Origin: Octopus vulgaris
Taxonomy: Eukaryota
Reading direction: 5' to 3'
Length of the DNA stretch: 64,000 bases
Assembly (NCBI GenBank): GCA_951406725.2
Contig: OX597819.1
Coordinates: 20,584,001 to 20,648,000 of the forward strand
Shown: piece after piece, positions 4,491 to 63,380 of the stretch
Position numbering within the stretch: the stretch's first letter is position 1
How the letters are laid out: each line of letters opens with the position of its first letter
Position numbers and translations under genes: made by a program
Notes under the pieces: generated by a model
What the model saw: only the letters and a program-made list of their open reading frames with translations
Told to the model about the DNA's origin: nothing
Database searches by the model: none

Positions 4491-5696
4491 AATATGGCCA
4501 ATAATATTCAAAAACGCTACAGGGTTGAAAATGAAATTACTGCACTGGTAAACGCTTGGTACACCCACCACAACGAAGCTAATGTTTACAGTAAAATAGC
4601 TGAAAACTTAGCAAAACAATCCTTTCACAGATCTGTAAAACAGATCGAAAATTAAAAAAAAGAGATTATAAGAATATTTACTATTTTCCACACGCAAATG
4701 GCAACACTAGAAGCCATCCTTATCAATGAATGTAGTGCACCAAATGGCCCAACTCCAACAGGTCAGGGGTCACTTCAACGACCCGATGACCAGCAACAAA
4801 CATCTGACCTAATTCCGCCATTTCCACCCAACATTACCCTGGCAAGCCAGAATTCACTATCACAAAAACATCTACAGCCTGCTTCTACTACTACATTGGA
4901 ACCAGAATCTGATCCGATTCCACACAACCCTACTGTTGCAAGTCAAGTTTCACTGCTGCTACAGCAACAACAACAACAACAACAACACCACTCTGCTACT
5001 GCTACTACAGCCAGAATAGAAAAATCACTACTACACCCACATAAAACACCCTGCCGTTAAAATTCTCAAGGCACCAACAACAATAGACGCTGGGCTTTTT
5101 TCCATCCTACCTTATGTCGTAGACTTGTTAAGGACACCTCTCCATATGGTATAACTGGAAAAAACTGCCGTCACCTCCACCCCAAATACTGTCCTAAATA
5201 CAGAGTCCATGGTCCTGATCCCAATTATGGATGCACAAAAGGCAATGGATGCACCTTCTTCCATCCTAAACTGTGCCAAACTTCTGTGTCACTAAGGATG
5301 TGCCTGAACCCAGAATGCAACCACCACCATCTGAAGGGTACAAAACGATCGCAAAATAAATATAAACAGCAACAGAGGAAATCTACGACAACAACAAGAA
5401 CAAAATACAACCACGTTTCCCCTCCTACAATCAAACAACGTAGACAGAACTATGAAAAAACCATAACACCAAATAACACCAACATGAAATATGTATCCTC
5501 TGATCAAGTGGCAAACCAAAGAGGTAACTCTTTTTTACTGACTTACCTAGAAAATATGAAGGCCGACCTGATCCAGGAGATCCAACGAGCTATCAGCAAC
5601 CACCTATGCAAATCACAAGGACCACACACCCACAACCAACAAGAAAATCATACACACACAGCTCCATACAAGAACTACCCACATTGTTACCACTGA
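4491..5696 (+). pseudogene. LINE ORF1 with four tandem CCCH-like zinc fingers (broken)
   Basis: PCR*NSQG...FFHPTLCRRLVKDTSPYGITGKNCRHLHPKYCPKYRVHGPDPNYGCTKGNGCTFFHPKLCQTSVSLRMCLNPECNHHH. Confidence 0.75.
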
Positions 5697-8608
5697 ACAA
5701 CATAATACATAACTTAGAACAATGCAAACATCAAAATTCCCTTACCTTGACATTCCTGTTAAATGTACGTGGAATCAACCCATCAATTATTGCCCAAAAA
5801 TGGAGGATCCCATATATAGAGAGTCGGCTTGCCGAAACGGCACATTGCTTCCCTTTCTTTATCCTTACCGAGACTCATTTGAAGAACATCCATATGGACG
5901 CCGAGGTGAAAATAAAAGATTTCACCGTTGTTCGTGCGGATCGCACAGACCGAAATAAGAGAGGGACAGCCATCTTTATCCATGACTCCTTTTCACTTGA
6001 TGCCAAGGACATATTTTCCAATGGCTACTGTGAATCGGTATCACTATTCAGCAAGGCCAAGGACATAAACATTCTTGGTCTTTACAGGCCTCCCCAAGCA
6101 CCTCTAAAGTGCTTTGAACAGTGCCTTAGCAAAGTCAAGTCCTTCCTTCGGAAGTACCACTCCGGAAACATACTAGTGATGGGTGATTTTAACCTCCCTC
6201 AAGTGAACTGGCCCACAAATACTCTGAAGTTAGGCACATGCTCCACATCAGATAGAGCAGCAGCAGAACTGCTCTTTAATCTAATGGATGAATACTTCCT
6301 GACTCAGCTAGTGCTCGAACCAACGAGACAGAATAAAACGATCTTGGATCTGGTATTGACCAATCACTCTAGCTTCGTTCACAGTATTTCAGTTGAAAAA
6401 ACTCTCCTCTCAGACCACGACATGGTACTCTGCAATTTTAATTACCGACATATAAAAACCAAACCAGCCAATCCCACTCCATGGCACTCATTTGACAACA
6501 TAAACTTCCACAAAGCGGACTGGGGAGCAATCAGAAAGGATCTGTCTTTCATCGACTGGTCTTTTACTCTCAATTCTACCCATATTGAGACCGCATGGCA
6601 GCACTTTGAAAACATTGTCACCTATACATGCTCTAAACACGCTCCCACGAAATCTACTAACGCAAACAGAAGCCGGCTCCCTAAAAAGAAAAAAAAACAC
6701 TCATCAAGCGCATCAAAAGACTCAACAAAAAAATCAACCAATTCAAATATTCCCACACACAACATCCACATTCAACAACAATGAAAAGGCTAGAGCTGGA
6801 AAAACTTCATCTGCAGACCGACATGAAAACCTCCATTGAAAATCAAAGAGCTGTGGAGGAACAGTGGGTAATCAAAAACATCAAACAGAACCCAAAATAG
6901 TTCTATTCTTATGCAAATAAGCATAGAACCACTGTCTCACCCATTGGGCCACTGATTGATGATAACGGCATTCCCCAACACGATACTAAAGAAATGGAAG
7001 AAATACTGCAGAAACAATACTGCTCTGTCTTTATTGTTCCCACTGATATTGACGTAAGAGAAGCGAACGATGTTGACTCCCAACATAACATCTCAGACAT
7101 AACCTTCACTGCCACTGACATCGTAGCAGCAATAAATGAGGTCAAATACTACTCTGTTGTAGGCCCTGATAGATTCCCCGCTAGTCTCCTGAAGGAATGT
7201 AGACACCAATTTGCAGTCCCTCTGACCAACCTCTGGATGAATTCGTTAGAGGCAGGTTATATACCGAAACAGTTTCTATCCCAGTCAGTCATACCGGTTT
7301 TCAAACAGGGAAACAGATCCCTCGCAGTCAAATATTGCCCAATCTCACTCACCTCCCACATCATTAAAGTGTTTTGAAAGAGTGTTAAGATCAAGGATAG
7401 CTGTCTTCCTGGAGACCCACAACTCCTAAATGCAAATCAGCATGGCTTTCGCTGTGGCAGGGATTGTCTAACACAACTCTTACACCACATTGAAGATGTA
7501 CTCAAAGCTTTGGGAACAGATTCGAACTCTGATGTCATATATCTTGACCTCAGTAAAGCGTTCGACAAGGTAGACCATAATATCCTACTCTGAAAATTGG
7601 CAAATGTTGGAATCCGTGGAAAAGTTCTACACTGGATTAAGTATTTCCTGGCGAATAGAACACAACATGTTGTAGTTGATGGAGTCCACCCAAGCCCAGC
7701 AAAAGTCACCAGCGGTGTCCCCAAGGGAACTGTCTTGGGTCCGCTACTCTTCATAATTTACATAAACGACCTTTCCAGTGTCGTACATTACTGCAAAGTG
7801 AAAATATTTGCTGATGACACTAAGCTCCAGCAAATCGTCAATGAAGAAGCAAACCGAACTCAACTTCAGTCTGATCTATATGCTGTGAGTCAATGGGCAG
7901 ACAGATACAAAATTCAACAATATCAATAGACCTAACAATATCAATAGACCTAACAATATCAGAGACCTGGGTGTAATTTTTGATGACGATCTCAGTTGGA
8001 GTGCACACATCAAGAAGGTCAATATAGCTCGCAGGATGAGTTCCTGGATCTTAAGAACTTTCCGGTCCAGAGAACAAGGTGTCATCATACCACTTTTCTC
8101 CTCCTTTGTACGGCCACACCTCGAATACTGCTGCCCACTGTGGTCTCCCCATAGAAGACACAACATCTCAAGAATTGAATCACCTCAGAGGGCACTCAGT
8201 AAATGAGTTCAGGGCATGGCTGCTCTCGATTATTGGGATCGCCTTACAGCCTTGAAACTCTACTCTCTCCAGCGTCGCCGTGAGCGGTACATCATTTGTA
8301 CGATGTGGAGAATATTCCGCCAACTTTGCCCAAACGACCTGAACATTAGCTTCAAGGTTCATTCAAGACTGGGACCACGGGCCATATGTCCCCTGCCCAA
8401 TTCAAGGTCACAACATACAGGTACACTGCAATATAATTTCTTTTCCTCAACAGGCCCTGCCCTACTTAACATTGCCCCGAAAGAGATCAAAGTGAAACAG
8501 GATCCCATCAACTTTAAACGGAGTCTGGATAGATTCCTTCAAAGAATACCAGATAAGCCAGCCATAATTGGATACAACTCACCCAACAAAAACTCACTAC
8601 TTGAATAG
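5606..8608 (+). pseudogene. LINE ORF2, endonuclease/reverse transcriptase (fragmented)
   Basis: ORF pieces 5606-6784, 6994-7377, 7597-7929 and 8216-8608 carry consecutive EN/RT motifs. Confidence 0.92.
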
Positions 8609-22647: not shown

Positions 22648-25600
22648 GATACACCGGGGGACGTTTAAGATGTAAGAACGATAAAACAGAGCTCCGAAAT
22701 CTATCCACAAACATCGAAAACAAAGACATCGTATGGAGTCAAAGATTTACTAACAAGGGATTGGACTGTATCCGAGTAATAAATACTCATTGAAATTTAT
22801 TACTATTTTCGGAACGAAATGATGTATTTTGAGTCGATATCATCTCTACCTCTAACACAACACATGTAAATATGCGTGGTACATTACGATCCATCAACAC
22901 CAGATCATCCCCGACCCCAAACACCATGTACAAAGGAACTACGAAGAAATTAAGTACCACCGATATTATTCAACCCAAGAATAACAATGTGACAACAGAA
23001 ATGAACGGACCGGTACCCAACAAAAATGACGACCGTCAAAATAATGGGCCGGACGTTGTTCCTCATGTCCCGCAAATAAAACCCAAAATACATAAATGGA
23101 CACGTGAGGAATACATTTCTATCCTAAACGCATACTTCACAGCAGTGCTCTACCCAAAAAATGAAAACACAACAACACATACATATAAAATATGGAAGGA
23201 AAATAACATAAATGTAGACTTGGATACAGCAATGAACCCTAATAAACTAGCTAACGTACGAAGATACATTCTCGACGCAAAAAAAATATCAGAAATAGAA
23301 ATAGAACATCTAAAAGAAAATATACACTAGGAAAATGTAGATAGAAGCCACACAACAATGCCCAATAATATAAACACTGAAACAGTAAAACACGAAGCAA
23401 ACGTAACATTCCCAACAAACACGATGTAAACAAAAAGCAACAAACTCAGACCGTAAGGATGCATAATAATACACGACAAACAGCAAGCCAAAACACAACA
23501 AACAAACATATAAATAAGAAAGAAAGCGACACAAATCTAAAACCTGGAAACGACGAAGGGGAGCCTAATGATTATGATAATATAAAAAGTAAAATAATCA
23601 AAGAACTGAAAACCACAGAGCTCAAAATGGACCACCGACCATACCTCCCAAAAATCAAAATAGACAAAACAACAACACCAATTATAAACAGCATAAACCT
23701 AGCCGTCACGGAACTAATAGCCACTGAAACAAAAAGCGATATCACTGAGCTAAATGACTTAGTATACGCAGCAGCCACTGCAGCCACAAAAGAAGCTGGA
23801 TACTCATTCAAACCCATCCAAACAGAAGTACCACCACCCAAACAAACCCTGTGGATAAATAACATCAAAACAAAATACAAAAAATGAGAAAAGATCTGTC
23901 GATTCTTAATGAAATTAGTAGACAATCAACGCTACTGAGCAACAAAAAGAAAACAAAAATACTCCTCAACTATAACATCACAGAGAAAGATTTACCTGAG
24001 ATAAAAGAAAAGCTGAAACAAGATATCCTTGCCAAAGCACAAAGGATCCGCCGGTACGAGAAACGCCAGCGCTTCTTTGAACAAAACAAAAAGTTCAACT
24101 CCAACCCCCAAATGTCTACCAAGAACTTGGCAAAAATAAAATAGAAATCACTGCAGCACCAACGTCAGAAGTGGAAGAATTCTGGAGAAAAACATGGTCG
24201 GCGAACGAACAACCCGAAAAAAAGAGTATTAAAACAACAAACTCAGCATCTGAGCAACTTTGGACCCCCATAACAACTGAAGAGGTCACCCAGGCACTGC
24301 AAAGACTAAGCAACTGGAAGGCACCTGGGCATGACAAGATCGCCAACTTCTGGTTGAAATATCTAAAAGGAATGCATAAAAAGCTGGCTGAAAACGTTAA
24401 CAACCTACTAGCAGAGGCAGAGACAATGCCTGAATGACTCACGAAGGGGAAAAACCATCTTTATTCCCAAATCAAATGAGACAGCAAAACCAGAAAACTA
24501 CAGACCAATAACCTGTCTCCCTACAATGTACAAGGCATTTACTGCAGTGATATCGCAAAGGTTGAACAAGCAGCTGGACGAAAATAACCTGTTTCCAGAA
24601 GAGCAGAAAGTATGCCGCAAAGGCTCATATGGCTGTAAAGATCAACTAATGATTGATAAAGCCATAACTGAAGACAGCCACAGAAAGAAGAAAGGCCTCA
24701 GTATGGCCTGGATCGACTTCAAAAATGCGTTTGATAGTATCCCCCGCACATGGATCCTCGAAACACCTGCCATTAACAAACTAGCACCAACAATTATAAT
24801 ATCCATAGGGTACTCTATGAATAAATGGCAAACAGTGCTACAGCTCCAAACAAAAGAGGGACTCATGAAAACCAAAGACATCCCCATTAGAAGAGGAATA
24901 TTCCAGGGAGTTACGCTCTCTCCACTCCTTTTCTGCTTGGCACTGTCACCTCTATCTGATATGCTAAATAGAACTGCATGCGGATATAGATGTTACGGCA
25001 AAACGATCAGCCACCTTTTATATATGGATGACCTAAAACTATACGCTGCAAATAACAAACAACTGGAAACACTATTAAAATCAGTTCATGGGTTTACCAA
25101 AGAAATATATATGACATTTGGATTAGAAAAATGCACCTAAGTAACCATGAAAAGAGGAAAACAAGTTAAGAGTAGCAACATCACACTAGATAAAACCAAT
25201 GAATAAAAGAATTAGACCGAAGCCAAACTTACAAATACTTAGGAATCCATGAACTAGATAAGACACAACACACACAAATGAAAGAGAAAATTAAAAAAAA
25301 AATTATAGACGAGTTAGATCAATACTAAAAACAGAGCTCAATGCTAAAAACAAGATGATAGATATTAACTTTTCAGCTGTCCCAGTTATAAGTTACAGCT
25401 ACAATATCCTTAACTGGACACTAAATGAACTGATCAAAATAGATAGGAAAACAAGAAAAATAATGACAGGATCTAGGATGCATCACCCAAAATCTGAAAG
25501 AATATATATACGACGTATAGAAGGTGGTAGAGACCATATACAGCTGGAAAACTACTTTAAAATGACCATCATAGGTCTGCAAAGATATCTACTTCAGAAG

Positions 25601-26416: not shown

Positions 26417-27710
26417 CGAGGGGCGTTCAATAAGTAACGACCCTGGCCCACTTGCAATTGTTTGATCTAGTTGAAATTTTTCGTGTGCTATTATTTATAT
26501 CTCTATAGAGTAAGCGGCAAATTACAGCTCTAAACTAATTGAGGTTTCTGATTTACAGGTGTTTGAACTGAGTCAAGTGTGAAATGGAGCCTGTTGAGTG
26601 TCGAGCAGTGATCTGGTTTTTGTATTTGAAAGGACGCAAACCACGGGAGACTTTTGATGAAATGAAAGTAACTTATGGTAATGTTGCCCCATCATATGAC
26701 CTTGTAAAACGCTGGCATCGTGAATTCAAACATGGTCGGAACTCGGTGGAAACAGCTCCCAGATCTGGTCGCCCCCCTTCTGCAATTGATGAGGCATCTG
26801 TCCGTCAAGTTGAGGCTGCCATTTTGGGAGATCGACGAATAACTATTCGCCAAATAGCCCACGAGTTCAAGATTAGTACCGGGTCTGTGGAAACTATCAT
26901 TCATGACAATTTGCATATGCAAAAGGTGTCTGCCAGATGGATTCCCAGGTTGCTCACACCTTTCCAGAAGCAAGAACGCGTCGAGTGCTCGAGGATGAAT
27001 TTGGAGATGTGCCAAGAAGATGAATCAACATTTTTCAAAAGTCTGATTTCACAGGATGAAACCTGGGTCCATCACTATGATCCAGAGACCAAAGCCCAGT
27101 CAATGCAGTGGAAGCACCGTGACTCACCTCCTCTAAAGAAGGCAAGGGTGCAGCCCTCCGCTGGTAAGTTCATGCTCACAGTCTTCTGGGACCAGGACGG
27201 AGTATTGATAACAGATTTCCTGGCAAAGGGTGCCACAATTACAGGAGTCTATTATGCTTCACTTTTGAGGAAATTAAGAGAAACTAGCAAAATCAAGAGG
27301 CGGGGCAAGATCAGCAATGGCATCCTCCTCCTGCAGGACAACGCTCCGGTCCACAACTCGCTTGTCGCTACATCAGAAGCACAGGCGTGCGGCTATAAAC
27401 TCTCCCCCCCTCCACCCTACTCTCCTGACCTCGCACCTTCTGATTTTCACCTCTTTCCAGCCATGAAGTTGTTTTTGAAAGGAAAGCGTTTCCCAGATGA
27501 CGCAGCCTTGATTTCTGAAGTCACTTCGTGGTTGGAGGACCAAGCTGGGTCTTCTAAAAAAAACGGTCTCCAGAGCTGTATCAACCGATGGGAGAAATGC
27601 GTAACTCTGGGTGGTTCCTATGTAGAGAAAGACTAATAACTGTGCAAAGTTTCGTTGCTCTACTGCTATGAGAAGTGAGTTAGGGGCATATACTTATTGA
27701 ACGCCCCTAG
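26417..27710 (+). mobile_element. Full-length mariner (irritans/Hsmar2-like), 1294 bp
   Basis: TIRs CGAGGGGCGTTCAATAAGTA / TACTTATTGAACGCCCCTAG, TA duplication at 26415 and 27711; removal restores the Dong frame TIPLI|VGALGMI. Confidence 0.96.
26584..27636 (+). CDS. Mariner transposase DD34D, uninterrupted 350 aa
   Basis: WIPRLL, QDETW, LQDNAPVH, PYSPDLAPSDF; 34 residues between 2nd and 3rd catalytic D. Confidence 0.95.
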   Translation: MEPVECRAVIWFLYLKGRKPRETFDEMKVTYGNVAPSYDLVKRWHREFKHGRNSVETAPRSGRPPSAIDEASVRQVEAAILGDRRITIRQIAHEFKISTGSVETIIHDNLHMQKVSARWIPRLLTPFQKQERVECSRMNLEMCQEDESTFFKSLISQDETWVHHYDPETKAQSMQWKHRDSPPLKKARVQPSAGKFMLTVFWDQDGVLITDFLAKGATITGVYYASLLRKLRETSKIKRRGKISNGILLLQDNAPVHNSLVATSEAQACGYKLSPPPPYSPDLAPSDFHLFPAMKLFLKGKRFPDDAALISEVTSWLEDQAGSSKKNGLQSCINRWEKCVTLGGSYVEKD

Positions 27711-36540: not shown

Positions 36541-37135
36541 ATAATAATGCGGTTTTTTCAACATCTTGAACTAAAAGTCAGAGGGGAATGGGATAAACCA
36601 CTTATATTAACTTGCTATAAAAGCAGGTAGTAATTTTATTTTGTCCTTATTCATAGTGCAAGTTTTGAAGAGTGCATTTCGATTTTAACAGCTATTTTTT
36701 TCAAAGCTATATTGGAAGTAACAAAGGAGCATATTTGGCATATTTTGCTTTATGAGTTCAATAAAGACAACAACGCAACGGAAAGTACAAGAAATATTAA
36801 TGTAGTATATGGGGATTGGACAATAAGCGTAAGGCAGTGTCAATGGTGGTTCCAGAAATTCCGAGCCATAAACTACAGCCTAGAAGACGAGCCTCATCCT
36901 GAAAGATCTGTAGAACTCGACAAGGACATCCTGAAAACCCTGGTGGAACAAAATCTCATCGTAACTGTTGAGGAACTAGCAGAGAAGCTTGGATTTGGTC
37001 ATTCAACCATTCATTGAGACCTGTGTGCTATCGGAAAAGTCAGCAAATTGGGTCAATGGGTTCCTCACGAACTTTCCGAGTCTAATTGCATGCAGGGAGT
37101 GAATGTATGCTTTTCTTTGCTGTCACATCTCACCA
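36541..37135 (+). mobile_element. 5' half of a mariner (Hsmar1/cecropia-like), truncated next to a Helitron
   Basis: TIR-like AATAATGCGGTTTTT; EVTKEHIWHILLYEFNK, WWFQKFR..NYSLEDEP, GQWVPHEL. Confidence 0.85.
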
Positions 37136-44358: not shown

Positions 44359-45639
44359 CGAGGGGCATTTCATAAGTAATGCCCCTGACCCACTTCCTAT
44401 AGCAGTAGAGCAACGAAACTTGGCACAGTTATTAGTCTTTTTCTACATAGGAAACACTCAGAGTTACGCATTTCTCCCATCGTTTAATGCATCTCTGGAG
44501 ACCGTTTTTGTAGAAGACCCCAGCTTGGTCCTCCAGCCACGACGTGTCTTCAGAAGTCAAGGATGAATCATCTGGGAAACGCTTTCCTTTCAAAAACAAC
44601 TTCATGGCTGGGAAGAGGTGAAAATCAGAAGGTGCAAGGTCAGGAGTGTAGGGGTGGGTGGGGGAGGAGTTCATAGCCGCACGCCTGTGCTTCTGATCTG
44701 GCGACAAGCGAGTTGTGGACCGGAGCGTTGTCCTGCAGGGGGAGGATGCATTTGCTGATGTTGCCCCGCCTCTTGATTTTGATAGCTTCTCTTAATTTCC
44801 TCAAAAGTGAAGCATAATAGGCTCCTGTAATTGTGGTACCCTTTGCCAGGAAATCTGTCATCACTACTCCGTCCTGGTCCCAGAAGACTGTGAGCATGAC
44901 CTTGCCAGCGGAGGGCTGCACCCTTGCCTTCTTTAGAGGAGGTGAGTCACGGTGCTTCCACTGCATTGACTGGGCTTTGATCTCTGGATCATAGTGATGG
45001 ACCCAGGTTTCATCCTGTGTAATCAGTCTTTTGAAAAATTTTGACTCATCTTCTTGGCACATCTCCAAATTCATCCTCGACCACCCGACGCGTTCTTGTT
45101 TCTGGAAAGGTTAGAACAACCTGGGAATCCATCTGGCAGATACCTTTTGCATATGCAAATGGTCATGAATGATAGTTTCCACAGACCTGGTACTAATCTT
45201 GACCTCACGGGCTATTTGGCGAATAGTCATGCGTCGATCTTCCAAAATGGCAGCCTCAACTTGATGGACAGACGCCTCATCAATGGCAGAAAGGGGGCGA
45301 CCAGATCTGGGAGCTGTTTCCACAGAGTTCCGACCATGTTTGAATTCACGATGCCAGCGTTTGACAAGGTCATATGATGGGGCATCATCACCATTAGTTA
45401 CTTTCATTTCATCAAATTCTCCCGTGGTGTGCGTCCTTTCAAATACAAAAACCGACACTCAACAGGCTCCATTTCACACTTGACTCAGTTCAAACACCTG
45501 TATATCAGAAACCACAATTAGTTCAGAGCTGTAATTTGCCACTTAATCTATAAAGATATAAATAATTGTACGTGCAAAATCTTAGCTAGATCTAACAACT
45601 GCAAGTGCGTCAGGGGCATTACTTATTGAACGTCCCTCG
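44359..45639 (-). mobile_element. Full-length frameshifted copy of the same mariner as 26417-27710
   Basis: TA-flanked TIRs; ORF pieces 45111-45458, 44640-45074, 44432-44707 closely match the 350-aa transposase. Confidence 0.95.
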
Positions 45640-52109: not shown

Positions 52110-52584
52110 CCTGTATACATACATACATATATAGATATGGATACATACATATATACATATGTGTGTGTGTGTGTACCTATATATGACAATATTCCATTCC
52201 TTCAGCATTCGCTACCTTCCCTCGTTTGGCCAAACGGTGCTCCATGCTTCATTTCATTTGGTTTGTTGCACGTCTCCACTATCCCGTTTTTGTTGCCCAC
52301 TTTAACCCTCCGCAAATCCCAAATTTTATTTTGGTTCGTGGGAGTAAGTAGCTTTTCGAAGACTCATATTTTCGTTAATTGCTCGAAATGAGCAGTAGCT
52401 GGACAGCTGACAACCGATGAAGGATCGTTTTTTTATGTTACTTGTCTTGTTTTCCATTTGCTTTTCTCGTTGTTCACATACCAAACTTTGTCTTCGTATT
52501 TCATATTCTATACATTTTGTGACGTCCTGCACCCATATATGCATATACATATACATACGTATATACATATATGCATGTATACAT

Positions 52585-55177: not shown

Positions 55178-55385
55178 GGAAAGTTTACGAAAATAAACAA
55201 AAGACGAAGGCAGGTGGAGTACAAACAAACAAATTATTAGTATGGCGCTCAGGAATAGAAATAGAAAAAGTCTTTTACGTTTCGAGCCTACGCTCTTCGA
55301 CAGAAAGATACACAGAAAAATACAAGGAGAGAAACAAGGAGAGAAAAAAATGCGTGTAGGAACTAACGATCTATCATTGCGTCTA
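55175..55385 (-). mobile_element. Penelope-type terminal fragment with hammerhead-like motif (family D)
   Basis: Reverse complement of 55270-55305: TCGAAGA-GCGTAGGCTC-GAAA-CG-TA, palindromic ACGT stem III; between microsatellites. Confidence 0.65.
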
Positions 55386-55495: not shown

Positions 55496-56346
55496 AATGT
55501 ATGCACATGTGTGTGTGTTTGTGTGTGTGTATGTATGTCAATGCTTTTACATCGCTGTGATGTTATCTACCAAATAGTCATCCATGCAGGCTTCATGTGT
55601 TATGATCCATTGTATATATATCAATGAGAAATGTTCTCCCTCTTATTTGAACCAAATTCATGCTGTTCAATATTAAATAAAAGAAAACCGTTGTAACGAA
55701 GTAACAATATATTTACTTTGGAAATCTCGCGAAATTGTTCGCCGTATGGCTTTTCCACATGTGTTTTCTCAAAGACATTCCATCTGAGCTTAATGTGATC
55801 AGCATTAATAATAACAGCAACAACAAATACACTGACCTACATGCTAATGCTTAACATCTGAAGCGAAGTCTTAATTTATGTTCAGAAATATTGCTTTGAA
55901 CTTCGTTCCAGAGAATCCTATTTTGTTTTTCACCATGAGCCATACGAACTATCATCTGTTCTCTTATATGATATATAAGTTACATAATAATAATAACAAC
56001 TGCATCAGAGTACACTTGTGATGAATTGCCTCAAATATGTTGCATGTTCGCAAACTTATTTTGTAACGGTTTAATCACAGAACGAAAGGAATATTTAGAA
56101 GAAATTTGAGGAACATTTGAAGTAGAAAAAAGAAGACAACTTCGGCTTGGAGATATGGATAGAATTTTTGTAACAAGGGGGAGTCCAGGAAAGAAATCCT
56201 AAATGGCAGATGGTATGATTTAATGGGATGAAAAATTAAGTTAACACTCAGAATCAGAAATGTTGACGTTGTAAAACTCCTTTTTAAGCTTCAAGAGAGT
56301 TTGGCGTTGTGTATCAAACTAAGAAGGTGGAAAGATTGTCTGAGAC

Positions 56347-57175
56347 TCATCTGGGTACTTTGTTGGTATATCTACCCACATAAAAGAGATTGGACAGGAA
56401 CTATTTTCAACACATGATCACAAAGAGGGCCTGACAAATCTTGCGTTGTCTCCGTATTTGAACAAAATAGCGACATCTGGTGGCAGCAGTATCCGCATTC
56501 ACGAGATGAATGACTCTCAGGAAATCTATGCTATAATTCAACTTGAAGAAGATTACACTGTTGACAAAATGCTGTGGACTGAGGATGGTCAATTGATGGC
56601 AGTTTCATCTTTTTATGGTCATCTGCAGGTCTTTTTGACTAAATTACCCATGCTAGCTGTCACTTACCAAACCCGAATTGCTAACTTAACATCATTACTT
56701 GAAGTCACAGTTCAGGACAATGTCAATAATGATTCAACTCTAGCAATTTCAATTGACATTGAACCCTCATTTATTGCTTTGGGCCCATCACATCTTGCTG
56801 TTGGCATGAACAATATAGCATGGTTTTACCATCTTGGAAAAGGTGACAAGAAGCTACGTGAAGTAGACTATGTGGGTAGTGTCCAATCCCTAAAGATGAA
56901 TGGCATTTATGTGGCTGCACATATAGGAGATAAAATTCATCTGCATATTCTCGATGCTAATAATTGTGAAAATGATGAATTCAAACAGAAGCAGTCTCGT
57001 CTCTTTGAAGGCAACAAGTCTCATATTACACATCATGCAATGGCTGAAGACTTTTTAATATTCTGCACCAGTTCTGGATTGCTGCAGTATTTTTACATGG
57101 ATGACTGGAAGTTTGTTAATGAATATAAACATACTTGTGGCATTCTCAAGGTCTTCCCTCATTCTATGGGAAATC
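56347..57175 (+). pseudogene. WDR19: WDR19/IFT144 internal fragment, intronless, probable processed copy
   Basis: In-frame SSGYFVGISTHIKEIGQELF..HK..LT.LA.SPYLNKIAT...WTEDGQLMAVS..GHLQVFLTKLP..TRIANLTSLLEVTV..IEPSFIALGPSHLAVGMNNIAWFY..DFLIF..DWKFVNEYKH..KVFP; stop at 56341 upstream, homology lost after about 57175. Confidence 0.88.
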
Positions 57176-57549
57176 TCAGTAATTTTTTACGAACCAGAAA
57201 ATTCCACAAACGAATCTTTCATTGACCCAATCGATAGCAGAAGTCACTTGCTTAAAGTACCATACTTGTACCATGCTGTCCTTAGACGTTGTTGTCATGC
57301 TACAAGGCCCATTTGTTTTTCACGATTGTCTATAACCCCCGTAAATCTTACTGCGTTGGGGCTACTCACACAGAAACCAAGGACCACATGATGAGAAGGG
57401 CCGATTTAATCTGTTAATAACAGGTTTGCTGTCGGCTTTCTCTGTCTAACGCTATTATAAGGGTACTCGCCCCTCGGAGTAGGCGAGCTTCGTAGCACTT
57501 CTACTCATCTACACTCAACGCACTCGCTTCTAATCATTTCGGCATTGAC

Positions 57550-61540: not shown

Positions 61541-61574
61541 ATATATAAGTGTGTGTGTGTGTGTGTGTTCTTTA

Positions 61575-61779
61575 AATTGCTTCAGTCATTTGATAGCGGT
61601 CATGCTGGCGCACAGCCGTTTTAGTCGAACGATTTGTTCTTTGTAACCCAAACACTTATTTTATCGCTCTCTTTTGACGAAACACTAAGACGTAAACAAA
61701 CTGACATCGGTTGTCAAATGATGGTGGAGAGACAATCACACATACAAACACAAATACGCAGACACACACAAACACACAA

Positions 61780-61780
<1 letters not shown>
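61575..61780 (-). mobile_element. CORE-type SINE 3' half, degenerate
   Basis: CAGTCATTTGA..GCGGTCATGCTGGCGCAC is the reverse complement of the family 1 tail. Confidence 0.65.
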
Positions 61781-61829
<49 letters not shown>

Positions 61830-62027
61830 TATATATTATATATTATATATATATTACATATTATATATATATATTATATTACATATATATTATATATATA
61901 TATATATATTATATTTATATATATTATATATTATATATATATATATATATGTATATTTTTATATGTATATGTTGTATTATGGGTATGCACCCACACCCAT
62001 GTGGGTATATATGTAGACTGATTTATA

Positions 62028-62165
62028 TTACATAATCTCCGAAGAGGCCTTATGATATTTTTGTAAACGACTCATTTATATCTATATATTGACCTACCAT
62101 AAAAGGCTGATATTGGTAAAATGAGACATACTTATCTATATGGCCGAAACAGCTGTAAGATGTAA
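62028..62165 (+). ncRNA. Hammerhead ribozyme-like motif with long loop II (family E)
   Basis: ATCT-CCGAAGA-GGCC-(about 90 nt)-GGCC-GAAA-CAG-CT-GTA-AGAT; stem I ATCT/AGAT extended by TTAC/GTAA; palindromic ACAGCTGT stem III. Confidence 0.7.
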
Positions 62166-62409
62166 TCTATACTTATATTTATATTTACTTATATTTATAT
62201 TCTCTTTTATATATATTCTCCTTATTATACAACATTACACTTTTATGTACACTTTTTTATGTACATTCCTTTATGTACACTTATTTGTTCTACTTTTTAT
62301 ATTTAACCCTAGAGTCTCTTATGTGGTGGTTCAATAAAGTATGTGATTGAGTATTATCTGGTAATTGATGTTTGATTTAGATGTATTTCCCCATTTTCTT
62401 ATCTTGTAT

Positions 62410-63380
<971 letters not shown>

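Follow-up and report, generated by a model that had tools for sequence, protein, structure and literature searches.

Introduction

The role of hammerhead ribozymes in Penelope-like elements is described as unresolved (PMC7761336, PMC8557442). For Penelope hammerheads, a dimer mode and slow cutting in vitro have been described (PMC4209133), and the hammerhead of an anole Penelope element cuts only with the element's protein and is dispensable for insertion in vitro (PMC11167929). As for the catalytic core, the change U4C "considerably decreases activity in vitro," yet it is natural in a viroid that stays infectious (PMC3088659), and a full mutagenesis found single changes in CUGA to be of low activity (PMC9901934).

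Here, we describe a hammerhead with C at core position 4 (C4) from a 64-kb Octopus vulgaris window, the window being the whole stretch of DNA that was analyzed. The Penelope-type layout proposed in the preliminary description is supported by a close architectural match to published Penelope hammerheads (PMC8557442). Like the octopus motif, with its helix I of 4 bp, the hammerheads of the Hydra-clade elements Penelope-1_NV, Penelope-1A_NV, Penelope-1_SK, and Hydra-1_aMil are of type I with a helix I of 4–5 bp (PMC8557442, Craig et al. 2021). Further likenesses are a helix III of ACAG..CUGU followed by A at the cut site (PMC8557442 file S2), the lack of an extra base before helix II in several of them (e.g., Penelope-1_NV, Penelope-1_SK, and Hydra-1_aMil), (TA)n targets, and a hammerhead about 100–430 nt from the 3' end, compared with about 260 nt between the predicted cut site and the right end of the octopus element (PMC8557442 files S1, S2).

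There are also clear differences. CUGA is present in 34 of the 34 rows of the table in PMC8557442, whereas the octopus repeat has C4; loop II measures 3–10 nt in the rows of the Hydra clade and does not exceed 35 nt anywhere in the table, whereas the octopus helix II takes up 100 nt. The longest listed loop II (35 nt) belongs to PLE-X1_sMoe, which has 53 nt of stem plus loop, and two spike-moss elements have loops of 29–35 nt. No reverse transcriptase (RT) gene is linked to the octopus repeat. The hammerhead of an octopus element, Hydra-1_oBim (Hydra-1_Obim), is a different sequence, and five motifs of our repeat are absent from the consensus set of PMC8557442, which includes octopus Naiad and Hydra and in which line wraps can hide a match.

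The octopus motif likewise resembles the minimal hammerheads (min-HHRs) of metazoan Penelope-like elements in its short helix I, palindromic helix III, dimer mode, and G10.1-C11.1 pair, as well as in the thousands of dispersed solo copies that come from truncated elements (PMC4209133, Cervera and de la Pena 2014). Similar short palindromic helices III occur in the min-HHRs of Saccoglossus (2), Aedes, and Drosophila willistoni (PMC4209133). In contrast to the octopus motif, all 56 representatives of the 56 have U4 and their stem plus loop II is at most about 23 nt; the descriptor enforced both (PMC4209133 figures S3, S7).

A type I hammerhead motif with C at core position 4

All named parts of the hammerhead were confirmed within 62035–62161 on the forward strand of the window. 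They are listed here with the kind of evidence in brackets; we take the core position labels, and A17 at 62157, from hammerhead numbering.

62027..62031, forward strand: optional outer helix I, 5' strand, pairing with 62162–62166 past a 3-nt bulge
62035..62038, forward strand: helix I, 5' strand ATCT (sequence)
62039..62045, forward strand: first core strand CCGAAGA, C3-C4-G5-A6-A7-G8-A9 (sequence, contig variants)
62046..62049 and 62142..62145, forward strand: helix II base GGCC/GGCC, in which G10.1-C11.1 is the pair G62046-C62145 (sequence)
62046..62145, forward strand: extended helix II, the GGCC/GGCC base plus 92 nt, predicted as a single interrupted hairpin (folding)
62146..62148, forward strand: second core strand G12-A13-A14 (sequence)
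62149..62156, forward strand: helix III, 8-nt palindrome ACAGCTGT, A15.1 to U16.1 (sequence, folding)
62157..62158, forward strand: predicted cleavage site after GUA, A17 = 62157 (hammerhead numbering)
62158..62161, forward strand: helix I, 3' strand AGAT, giving a helix I of 4 bp (sequence)

The helices ATCT/AGAT and GGCC/GGCC, the palindrome, and the core CCGAAGA at 62039–45 are all found where the preliminary description had placed them. Three helices surround the core, with helix I open-ended (type I) and a helix II of 4 bp plus an extension, the two GGCC arms being 92 nt apart. The letters required of a type I hammerhead, G12 A13 A14, the A15.1-U16.1 pair, and H17, are present (62146–62149, 62156, and A at 62157), as is the min-HHR combination of a palindromic helix III and G10.1-C11.1. 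The consensus C3 U4 G5 A6 N7 G8 A9 is matched at six of its seven positions, the exception being the C at 62040 (position 4). The outer helix I has a pair probability of 0.78–0.98 in the monomer fold and is not kept in every copy of the repeat: 62028, 62030, 62031, and 62033 vary, and several contigs diverge to the left of 62035.

A relaxed descriptor (core C[CT]GANGA, loop II of up to 150 nt, palindromic helix III), searched on both strands, gave a single match on either strand of the 64 kb, namely this site, and matched in 0 of 300 windows shuffled in 500-nt blocks with dinucleotides kept. We therefore have little room for chance assembly of short motifs in AT-rich DNA, which is refuted by these shuffles and by the family-wide copies described below. 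What speaks for chance is that Rfam gave no match at gathering score anywhere in the 64-kb window, that the 150 listed of its 178 weak matches to 50–64 kb include no hammerhead family, and that a looser two-part pattern gave 70 matches in metagenomes (GC 0.46–0.76), all judged to be chance. Those look-alikes, however, contain the first core strand in 0 of 70 cases and have no BLAST likeness to the octopus element, while the octopus motif is conserved across its family and is close in architecture to the published Penelope hammerheads (PMC8557442). Chance is thus practically untenable, and the octopus motif is almost certainly a hammerhead by descent.

It is because of the altered core letter and the long insert that standard searches overlook this hammerhead. 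The published Penelope min-HHR descriptor demands CUGANGA, a stem II of 3–7 bp, a loop II of 3–10 nt, and GAAANNUH (PMC4209133 figure S7), and it failed here on three counts: C4, the 92 nt between the GGCC arms, and the 8 nt from A15.1 to U16.1. The preliminary description had foreseen that typical descriptors would miss the motif, and the CUGANGA and short loop II of the published one bear this out. Exact-motif scans of viral contigs and prokaryote genomes gave no match. We found no earlier description of a long-arm C4 hammerhead in the literature, in which Lunse et al. 2017, on Penelope hammerhead variants, may contain similar cases; the words "hammerhead" and "ribozyme" are absent from the main text of a 2026 repeat annotation of Octopus vulgaris (PMC13282606).

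The hammerhead lies in a dispersed repeat of likely Penelope origin

The motif lies in a repeat of about 450 bp that is bounded by (TA)n tracts on both sides.

61787..61960, no strand assigned: (TA)n-rich tract, left flank (sequence)
61965..62420, forward strand: repeat element with the hammerhead, ends approximate (contig matches; right end past 62400 from sequence alone)
62333..62338, forward strand: AATAAA followed by a GU-rich stretch, a possible polyadenylation signal of the element (sequence; putative function)
62410..62550, no strand assigned: (TA)n tract, right flank (sequence)

Parts of the repeat are present in 20 sequencing runs with 5 organism labels from 11 studies. Contigs matching 61965–62400 number 729 in run X1 and 893 in run X5, most of them at 90–99% identity; summed contig depth over the repeat is not a copy number. 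We viewed the copies as contig variants in four runs (X1, X5, X8, and X14), two of them guessed to be RNA, and in three runs the repeat at 62162–62220 had no contig cover. To the left, 61560–61780 is presumably a SINE-like repeat.

The octopus copy is solo: the 64-kb window holds no second copy of the repeat and no partner hammerhead of the same family. No RT or GIY-YIG gene linked to the repeat was found among the 47 of 94 frames scanned against Pfam, none of which lies to the right of 59562, so that short or broken RT remnants within 58–64 kb may have escaped; the long frames to the right of 59562, beside the element, are microsatellite only, and between 59563 and 61624 there is no frame of 100 aa. 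The absence of an RT frame beside the octopus copy is what a truncated copy would show. A 65-codon frame from the ATG at 62140 is of low complexity. A small hairpin is present upstream of the hammerhead at 61980–61993 (forward strand), and loose ends of X14 contigs show both of its arms changed, from G-C to A-U; in the octopus copy, a hairpin at 61983–62012 is no better than shuffles (z -0.16).

Several Penelope-like traits are present, namely insertion at (TA)n, a hammerhead near the 3' end, and a dispersed high copy state (hundreds of contigs), and the repeat is probably of Penelope-like origin. Since U4 is lacking, the descriptor limits are exceeded, the Rfam score is not reached, and no RT is linked, we file it as a Penelope-built variant of likely Penelope origin rather than as a demonstrated member.

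Animal non-LTR retrozymes suggest another origin, in which the repeat would be the monomer of a non-coding tandem repeat that is cut by its hammerhead, circularized, and reinserted by a Penelope RT. The octopus repeat shares with them its shortness (about 450 bp), AT richness, non-coding nature, and type I hammerhead with a helix III of 2 bp plus tetraloop (PMC7229834, Cervera and de la Pena 2020); solo monomers exist, and an origin of retrozymes from Penelope pseudo-LTRs has been proposed (bioRxiv 10.64898/2026.07.22.740005). However, retrozymes are described as tandem units of 170–400 nt with loop 1–loop 2 contacts and well-paired circles (PMC7229834), and none of these features is seen in the octopus repeat. 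There is no tandem copy in the window and no head-to-tail joint among contigs within 61965–62400; the whole repeat unit has no advantage over shuffles in folding (z -0.5), whereas retrozyme circles are highly self-paired; and helices I and II lack the retrozyme layout of 6 bp and 4 bp plus loop. We therefore consider a retrozyme monomer very improbable.

The 92-nt insert is predicted to form a long helix II

In the preliminary description, stem II closed a very long AT-rich loop. The insert is instead predicted to form an extended helix II of 34–37 bp, and its length is constant among the long contig pieces that cross it, with a single indel row in the four runs. Folded alone, 62046–62145 gives one interrupted hairpin of 34 bp at -23.1 kcal/mol (z -3.2, reached by 0 of 200 shuffles, GGCC ends included). 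The inner 92 nt without the GGCC ends are mildly stable in the octopus copy (z -1.9 and -1.7), and among 427 GC-matched 100-nt segments, 25 fold no worse than the arm of this copy.

In all four runs, practically the entire depth (about 100%) at 62068, 62070, and 62109 shows a different letter, and these three changes are thus private to the octopus copy. Each of the majority letters pairs in the existing register, adding three pairs (37 bp) and together -5.3 kcal/mol, a gain equaled by 15 of 1500 random triples. Once these letters are put in, the inner 92 nt reach z -3.7 (0 of 1000 shuffles). The base and the middle of the arm look held and the tip loose, the variants being unphased and the likeness partly due to shared descent. 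We read the tip as loose because costly letters and shortened versions cluster there: among 16 natural letters tested in the arm, 4 cost 0.8–3.8 kcal/mol, all near the tip, and loose contig ends show some copies with an altered or shorter tip.

The arm makes the hammerhead fold feasible, because the fold is computed at -24.1 kcal/mol with the long arm and at -4.2 kcal/mol with an open 92-nt loop. The hairpin is worth about 20 kcal/mol over the open loop, and the length of the insert therefore costs the fold nothing. The same comparison bears on the literal reading of the preliminary description, a helix II of 4 bp with an unstructured and freely varying loop of about 92 nt, or a loop removed as an intron. 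That the insert is AT-rich and holds 15 variable places (among the 40 of 81 variant rows listed) would fit this reading, and Penelope pseudo-LTRs can carry introns beside the hammerhead (PMC4209133). Apart from the energies, the majority letters add pairs, which speaks against an open loop, and against both forms stand the single indel row and the lack of any joint in the four runs, two of them guessed RNA. We give this reading hardly any credence. Splicing out of the 92 nt was likewise rejected, no such joint being present in the contigs; two X14 joints at repeat positions 62162–62220 lie outside the view. An origin of the arm as an inverted copy of the element's own 3' part was also rejected, the alignment scores being reached by 273–1477 of 2000 shuffles.

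The core looks constant among copies and C4 is the family state

The comparison of variants uses the 40 of 81 variant rows listed from the four runs, and the contigs are interrupted at 62162, which makes it a weaker test of the last core letters. Variable places in these rows number 15 of 92 in the insert and 9 of 25 in the 5' flank, but 0 of 35 in the core and helix bases. The core differs from the insert with a Fisher p of 0.011 (0.034 once private and X14-only places are left aside) and from the 5' flank with p 0.0001. The preliminary description had proposed aligning copies to see whether loop II varies while the GGCC pairs and the core are fixed; this expectation largely held. By arithmetic on the counts of each type of change, assuming a 1% rule that fits the rows at 62098 and 62370, at most 1 (X5), 1 (X14), 3 (X8), and 4 (X1) of the 19 G/C places of the core and helix bases can vary at >=1%. 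Shared descent from a single master, rather than selection, accounts in part for the likeness among the copies.

Position 62040 is absent from the variant rows (40 of 81 listed). All C>T places of X5 (5 of 5) and X14 (3 of 3) are explained by listed rows elsewhere, and T at 62040 is therefore, under the same 1% rule, below 1% in these runs; X1 and X8 each have one unlisted C>T, so that a minor U4 subfamily is conceivable there. Most copies share C4, which is the state of the family and not decay of the octopus copy. Decay to C4, or a letter repaired by editing, found no support, as there is no C>T at 62040 at >=1% in X5 or X14.

A hammerhead with C at core position 4 has been described in a viroid, where it is slower in vitro and sufficient in vivo (Ambros and Flores 1998, via PMC3088659). 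The viroid form is a rare variant with full tertiary contacts (PMC3088659), whereas C4 is the majority state in the octopus family, which is without a known tertiary contact. As U4C lowers activity (PMC3088659), a catalytically dead family has to be taken seriously as a rival. Under this reading, a master copy with no more need to cut would have acquired C4 and the long arm and would have spread because the Penelope protein still recognizes the 3' region, and constancy would reflect descent. In favor of this rival, CUGA mutants are weak (PMC9901934), and anole hammerhead mutants insert normally in vitro, with no RNA ends seen at the cut site (PMC11167929). Invariance is not specific to catalytic letters, since the 3' arm of the insert shows no more variation than the core does (0 of 26 places, among the 40 of 81 rows listed). 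One X8 contig (record 30, 62142–62346) spans the predicted cut site uncut, although any solo copy, or DNA, would be expected to give such a contig.

On the other hand, contigs with about 18% other letters (X1 record 2, X8 record 26) change in the flank and the arm and not in the core, in line with the difference between core and 5' flank given above. Apart from C4, the catalytic letters are all intact, as are the palindrome and the GUH site, and the viroid lives with U4C (PMC3088659). We consider a dead family unlikely, but worth keeping in view.

Helix III and the predicted cleavage

According to the preliminary description, stem III cannot close as a hairpin and activity would need a dimer. 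The first statement does not hold, for a helix III of 2 bp plus a 4-nt loop is possible in the monomer and costs 0.5 kcal/mol; invertebrate retrozymes with this layout are reported to cut as monomers (PMC7229834, PMC7761336). Pair probabilities in the monomer ensemble are nevertheless at most 0.02 for the inner helix I and for helix III. Between two copies, the palindrome ACAGCTGT forms an 8-bp duplex at -11.1 kcal/mol, and a double hammerhead is computed at -64.1 kcal/mol against -56.6 kcal/mol for two monomer minimum-energy folds, so that the dimer is favored by 7.5. The dimer minimum-energy fold (-68.1 kcal/mol) keeps the palindrome duplex and loses the inner helix I, the drawn double hammerhead lying 4 kcal/mol above it. 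A preference for the dimer thus stands.

Penelope hammerheads cut slowly or with the aid of protein and U4C and CUGA mutants are weak, and for these reasons the parent element would cut slowly and in dependence on a dimer or a protein. We lean slightly toward the view that the parent family cut at a useful rate. Cleavage of the octopus copy in vivo is quite improbable, and this solo copy is probably idle.

Signs of RNA, editing, and splicing

None of the runs that contain the repeat is recorded as RNA, and this has no bearing on expression. In run X14, which is RNA by guess, there are 31 A>G places compared with 1–4 of any other kind, while the DNA-like runs have 8–9 A>G. At 62084, 62321, 62333, 62334, and 62363, A>G reaches 32–51% in X14 and at most 0.3% in X1 and X5; two of these places (62333 and 62334) fall on the AATAAA. 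None of the five places has G on its 5' side, the side at which ADAR enzymes have a preference as to the letter. Read by eye, one loose end in X14 has 8 T>C within 30 letters of the 5' arm, which would correspond to editing of the opposite strand. The X14 changes, seen in 25 contigs, resemble A-to-I editing of repeat RNA from both strands and give a weak hint of it. The idea that only the ribozyme strand is transcribed was dropped because this loose end reads as the opposite strand edited.

A possible intron at 62155–62314 (forward strand) was also noted. Its GT 5' splice-like site (GTAAGA) overlaps the predicted cut triplet and is followed by a U-rich tract, and a CAG that could be the intron end is present at 62312–14 in nearly all other copies. 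Splicing of this stretch would remove the cut site. No joint for it was seen, and one RNA-guess contig is unspliced.

Half-core elements and other hammerhead-like stretches

The Naiad elements classed as "HHR_half_core" resemble the octopus repeat in that their core halves are too far apart for descriptors (35–50 nt) and in their (TA)n targeting, and they include the cephalopod cases Naiad_Ovul and Naiad_Esco (PMC8557442). The 3' end of Naiad_Obim differs: it has the core halves in opposite order and no likeness by eye, whereas the octopus repeat has full type I helices (PMC8557442). In some Naiad 3' ends, including that of Naiad_Obim, GAAAC precedes CTGATGA, as it does in hammerheads of type II or III, and in one a type I-like core has its 5-bp arms 33 nt apart (PMC8557442). 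Naiads may hold more hammerheads than were scored in that study.

Within the window, another repeat at 55270–55310 (reverse strand) holds a minimal hammerhead relic with a GAGC/GCTC helix II, a 4-nt loop, an ACGT palindrome, and one core mismatch at position 6. Further relic-like stretches were seen by eye near 52430 and 52820 (forward strand). At 63040–63165, there is a near-perfect inverted repeat with about 60 bp per arm, each arm with CTGATGA and, about 12 nt later, GAAAC; it is possibly an inverted pair of Penelope ends. Fragments of a LINE endonuclease, an RT, and three mariner-type transposases lie at 5528–6784, 24412–25140, 26572–27636, 36634–37017, and 44640–45458.

About 5 kb upstream of the hammerhead, 56286–57177 (forward strand) is an intronless WDR19/IFT144 fragment. 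Its identity is 97% with a UniRef cluster labeled Octopus bimaculoides, 76% with Argonauta, and about 50% with other animals, which marks the window as octopus DNA. Its pieces are out of order, with residues 663–683 directly 5' of residues 266–542, and it resembles a retrocopy spanning a back-splice junction, which would make it a circular-RNA-derived pseudogene.

Discussion

Our preferred explanation, held with moderate confidence, is that the locus is a type I hammerhead in the 3' remnant of a (TA)n-targeting Penelope-like element, the 92-nt insert forming a long helix II that unites the two halves of the core. The insert is predicted to zip into an interrupted hairpin of 34–37 bp and would so join the core halves. 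A transcript of the parent element with two copies, arranged as tandem pseudo-LTRs, would form an 8-bp helix III from their palindromes. The resulting dimer would be cleaved after GUA (62157) at a rate that C4 keeps low, probably with help from the element's own protein, as reported for the anole Penelope. The octopus solo copy would be a by-product of retrotransposition, 5'-truncated and with three private changes that weaken the arm, and may rarely cut. A function of its own is unlikely for this single copy.

A further idea goes beyond this explanation. Octopus might carry a whole family of Penelope-type hammerheads that every published descriptor overlooks, and its 100-base helix II arm might act as a control module, serving as an RT landing site that offsets the weak C4 and as a double-stranded target for A-to-I editing that switches cutting off. 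We regard it as improbable; if it were true, long arms may explain part of the "half core" Penelope-like elements that were scored as ribozyme-free.

A high-copy family with C4 and a 100-nt helix II reveals a blind spot in surveys that demand CUGA and a short loop II. The octopus family offers contrasts for tests, namely C4 and U4, long and short arm, monomer and dimer. If the natural form cuts, the space of tolerated hammerheads would be wider than it has been drawn; if it does not, the family would be a good case of a Penelope family that spread after the loss of cleavage.
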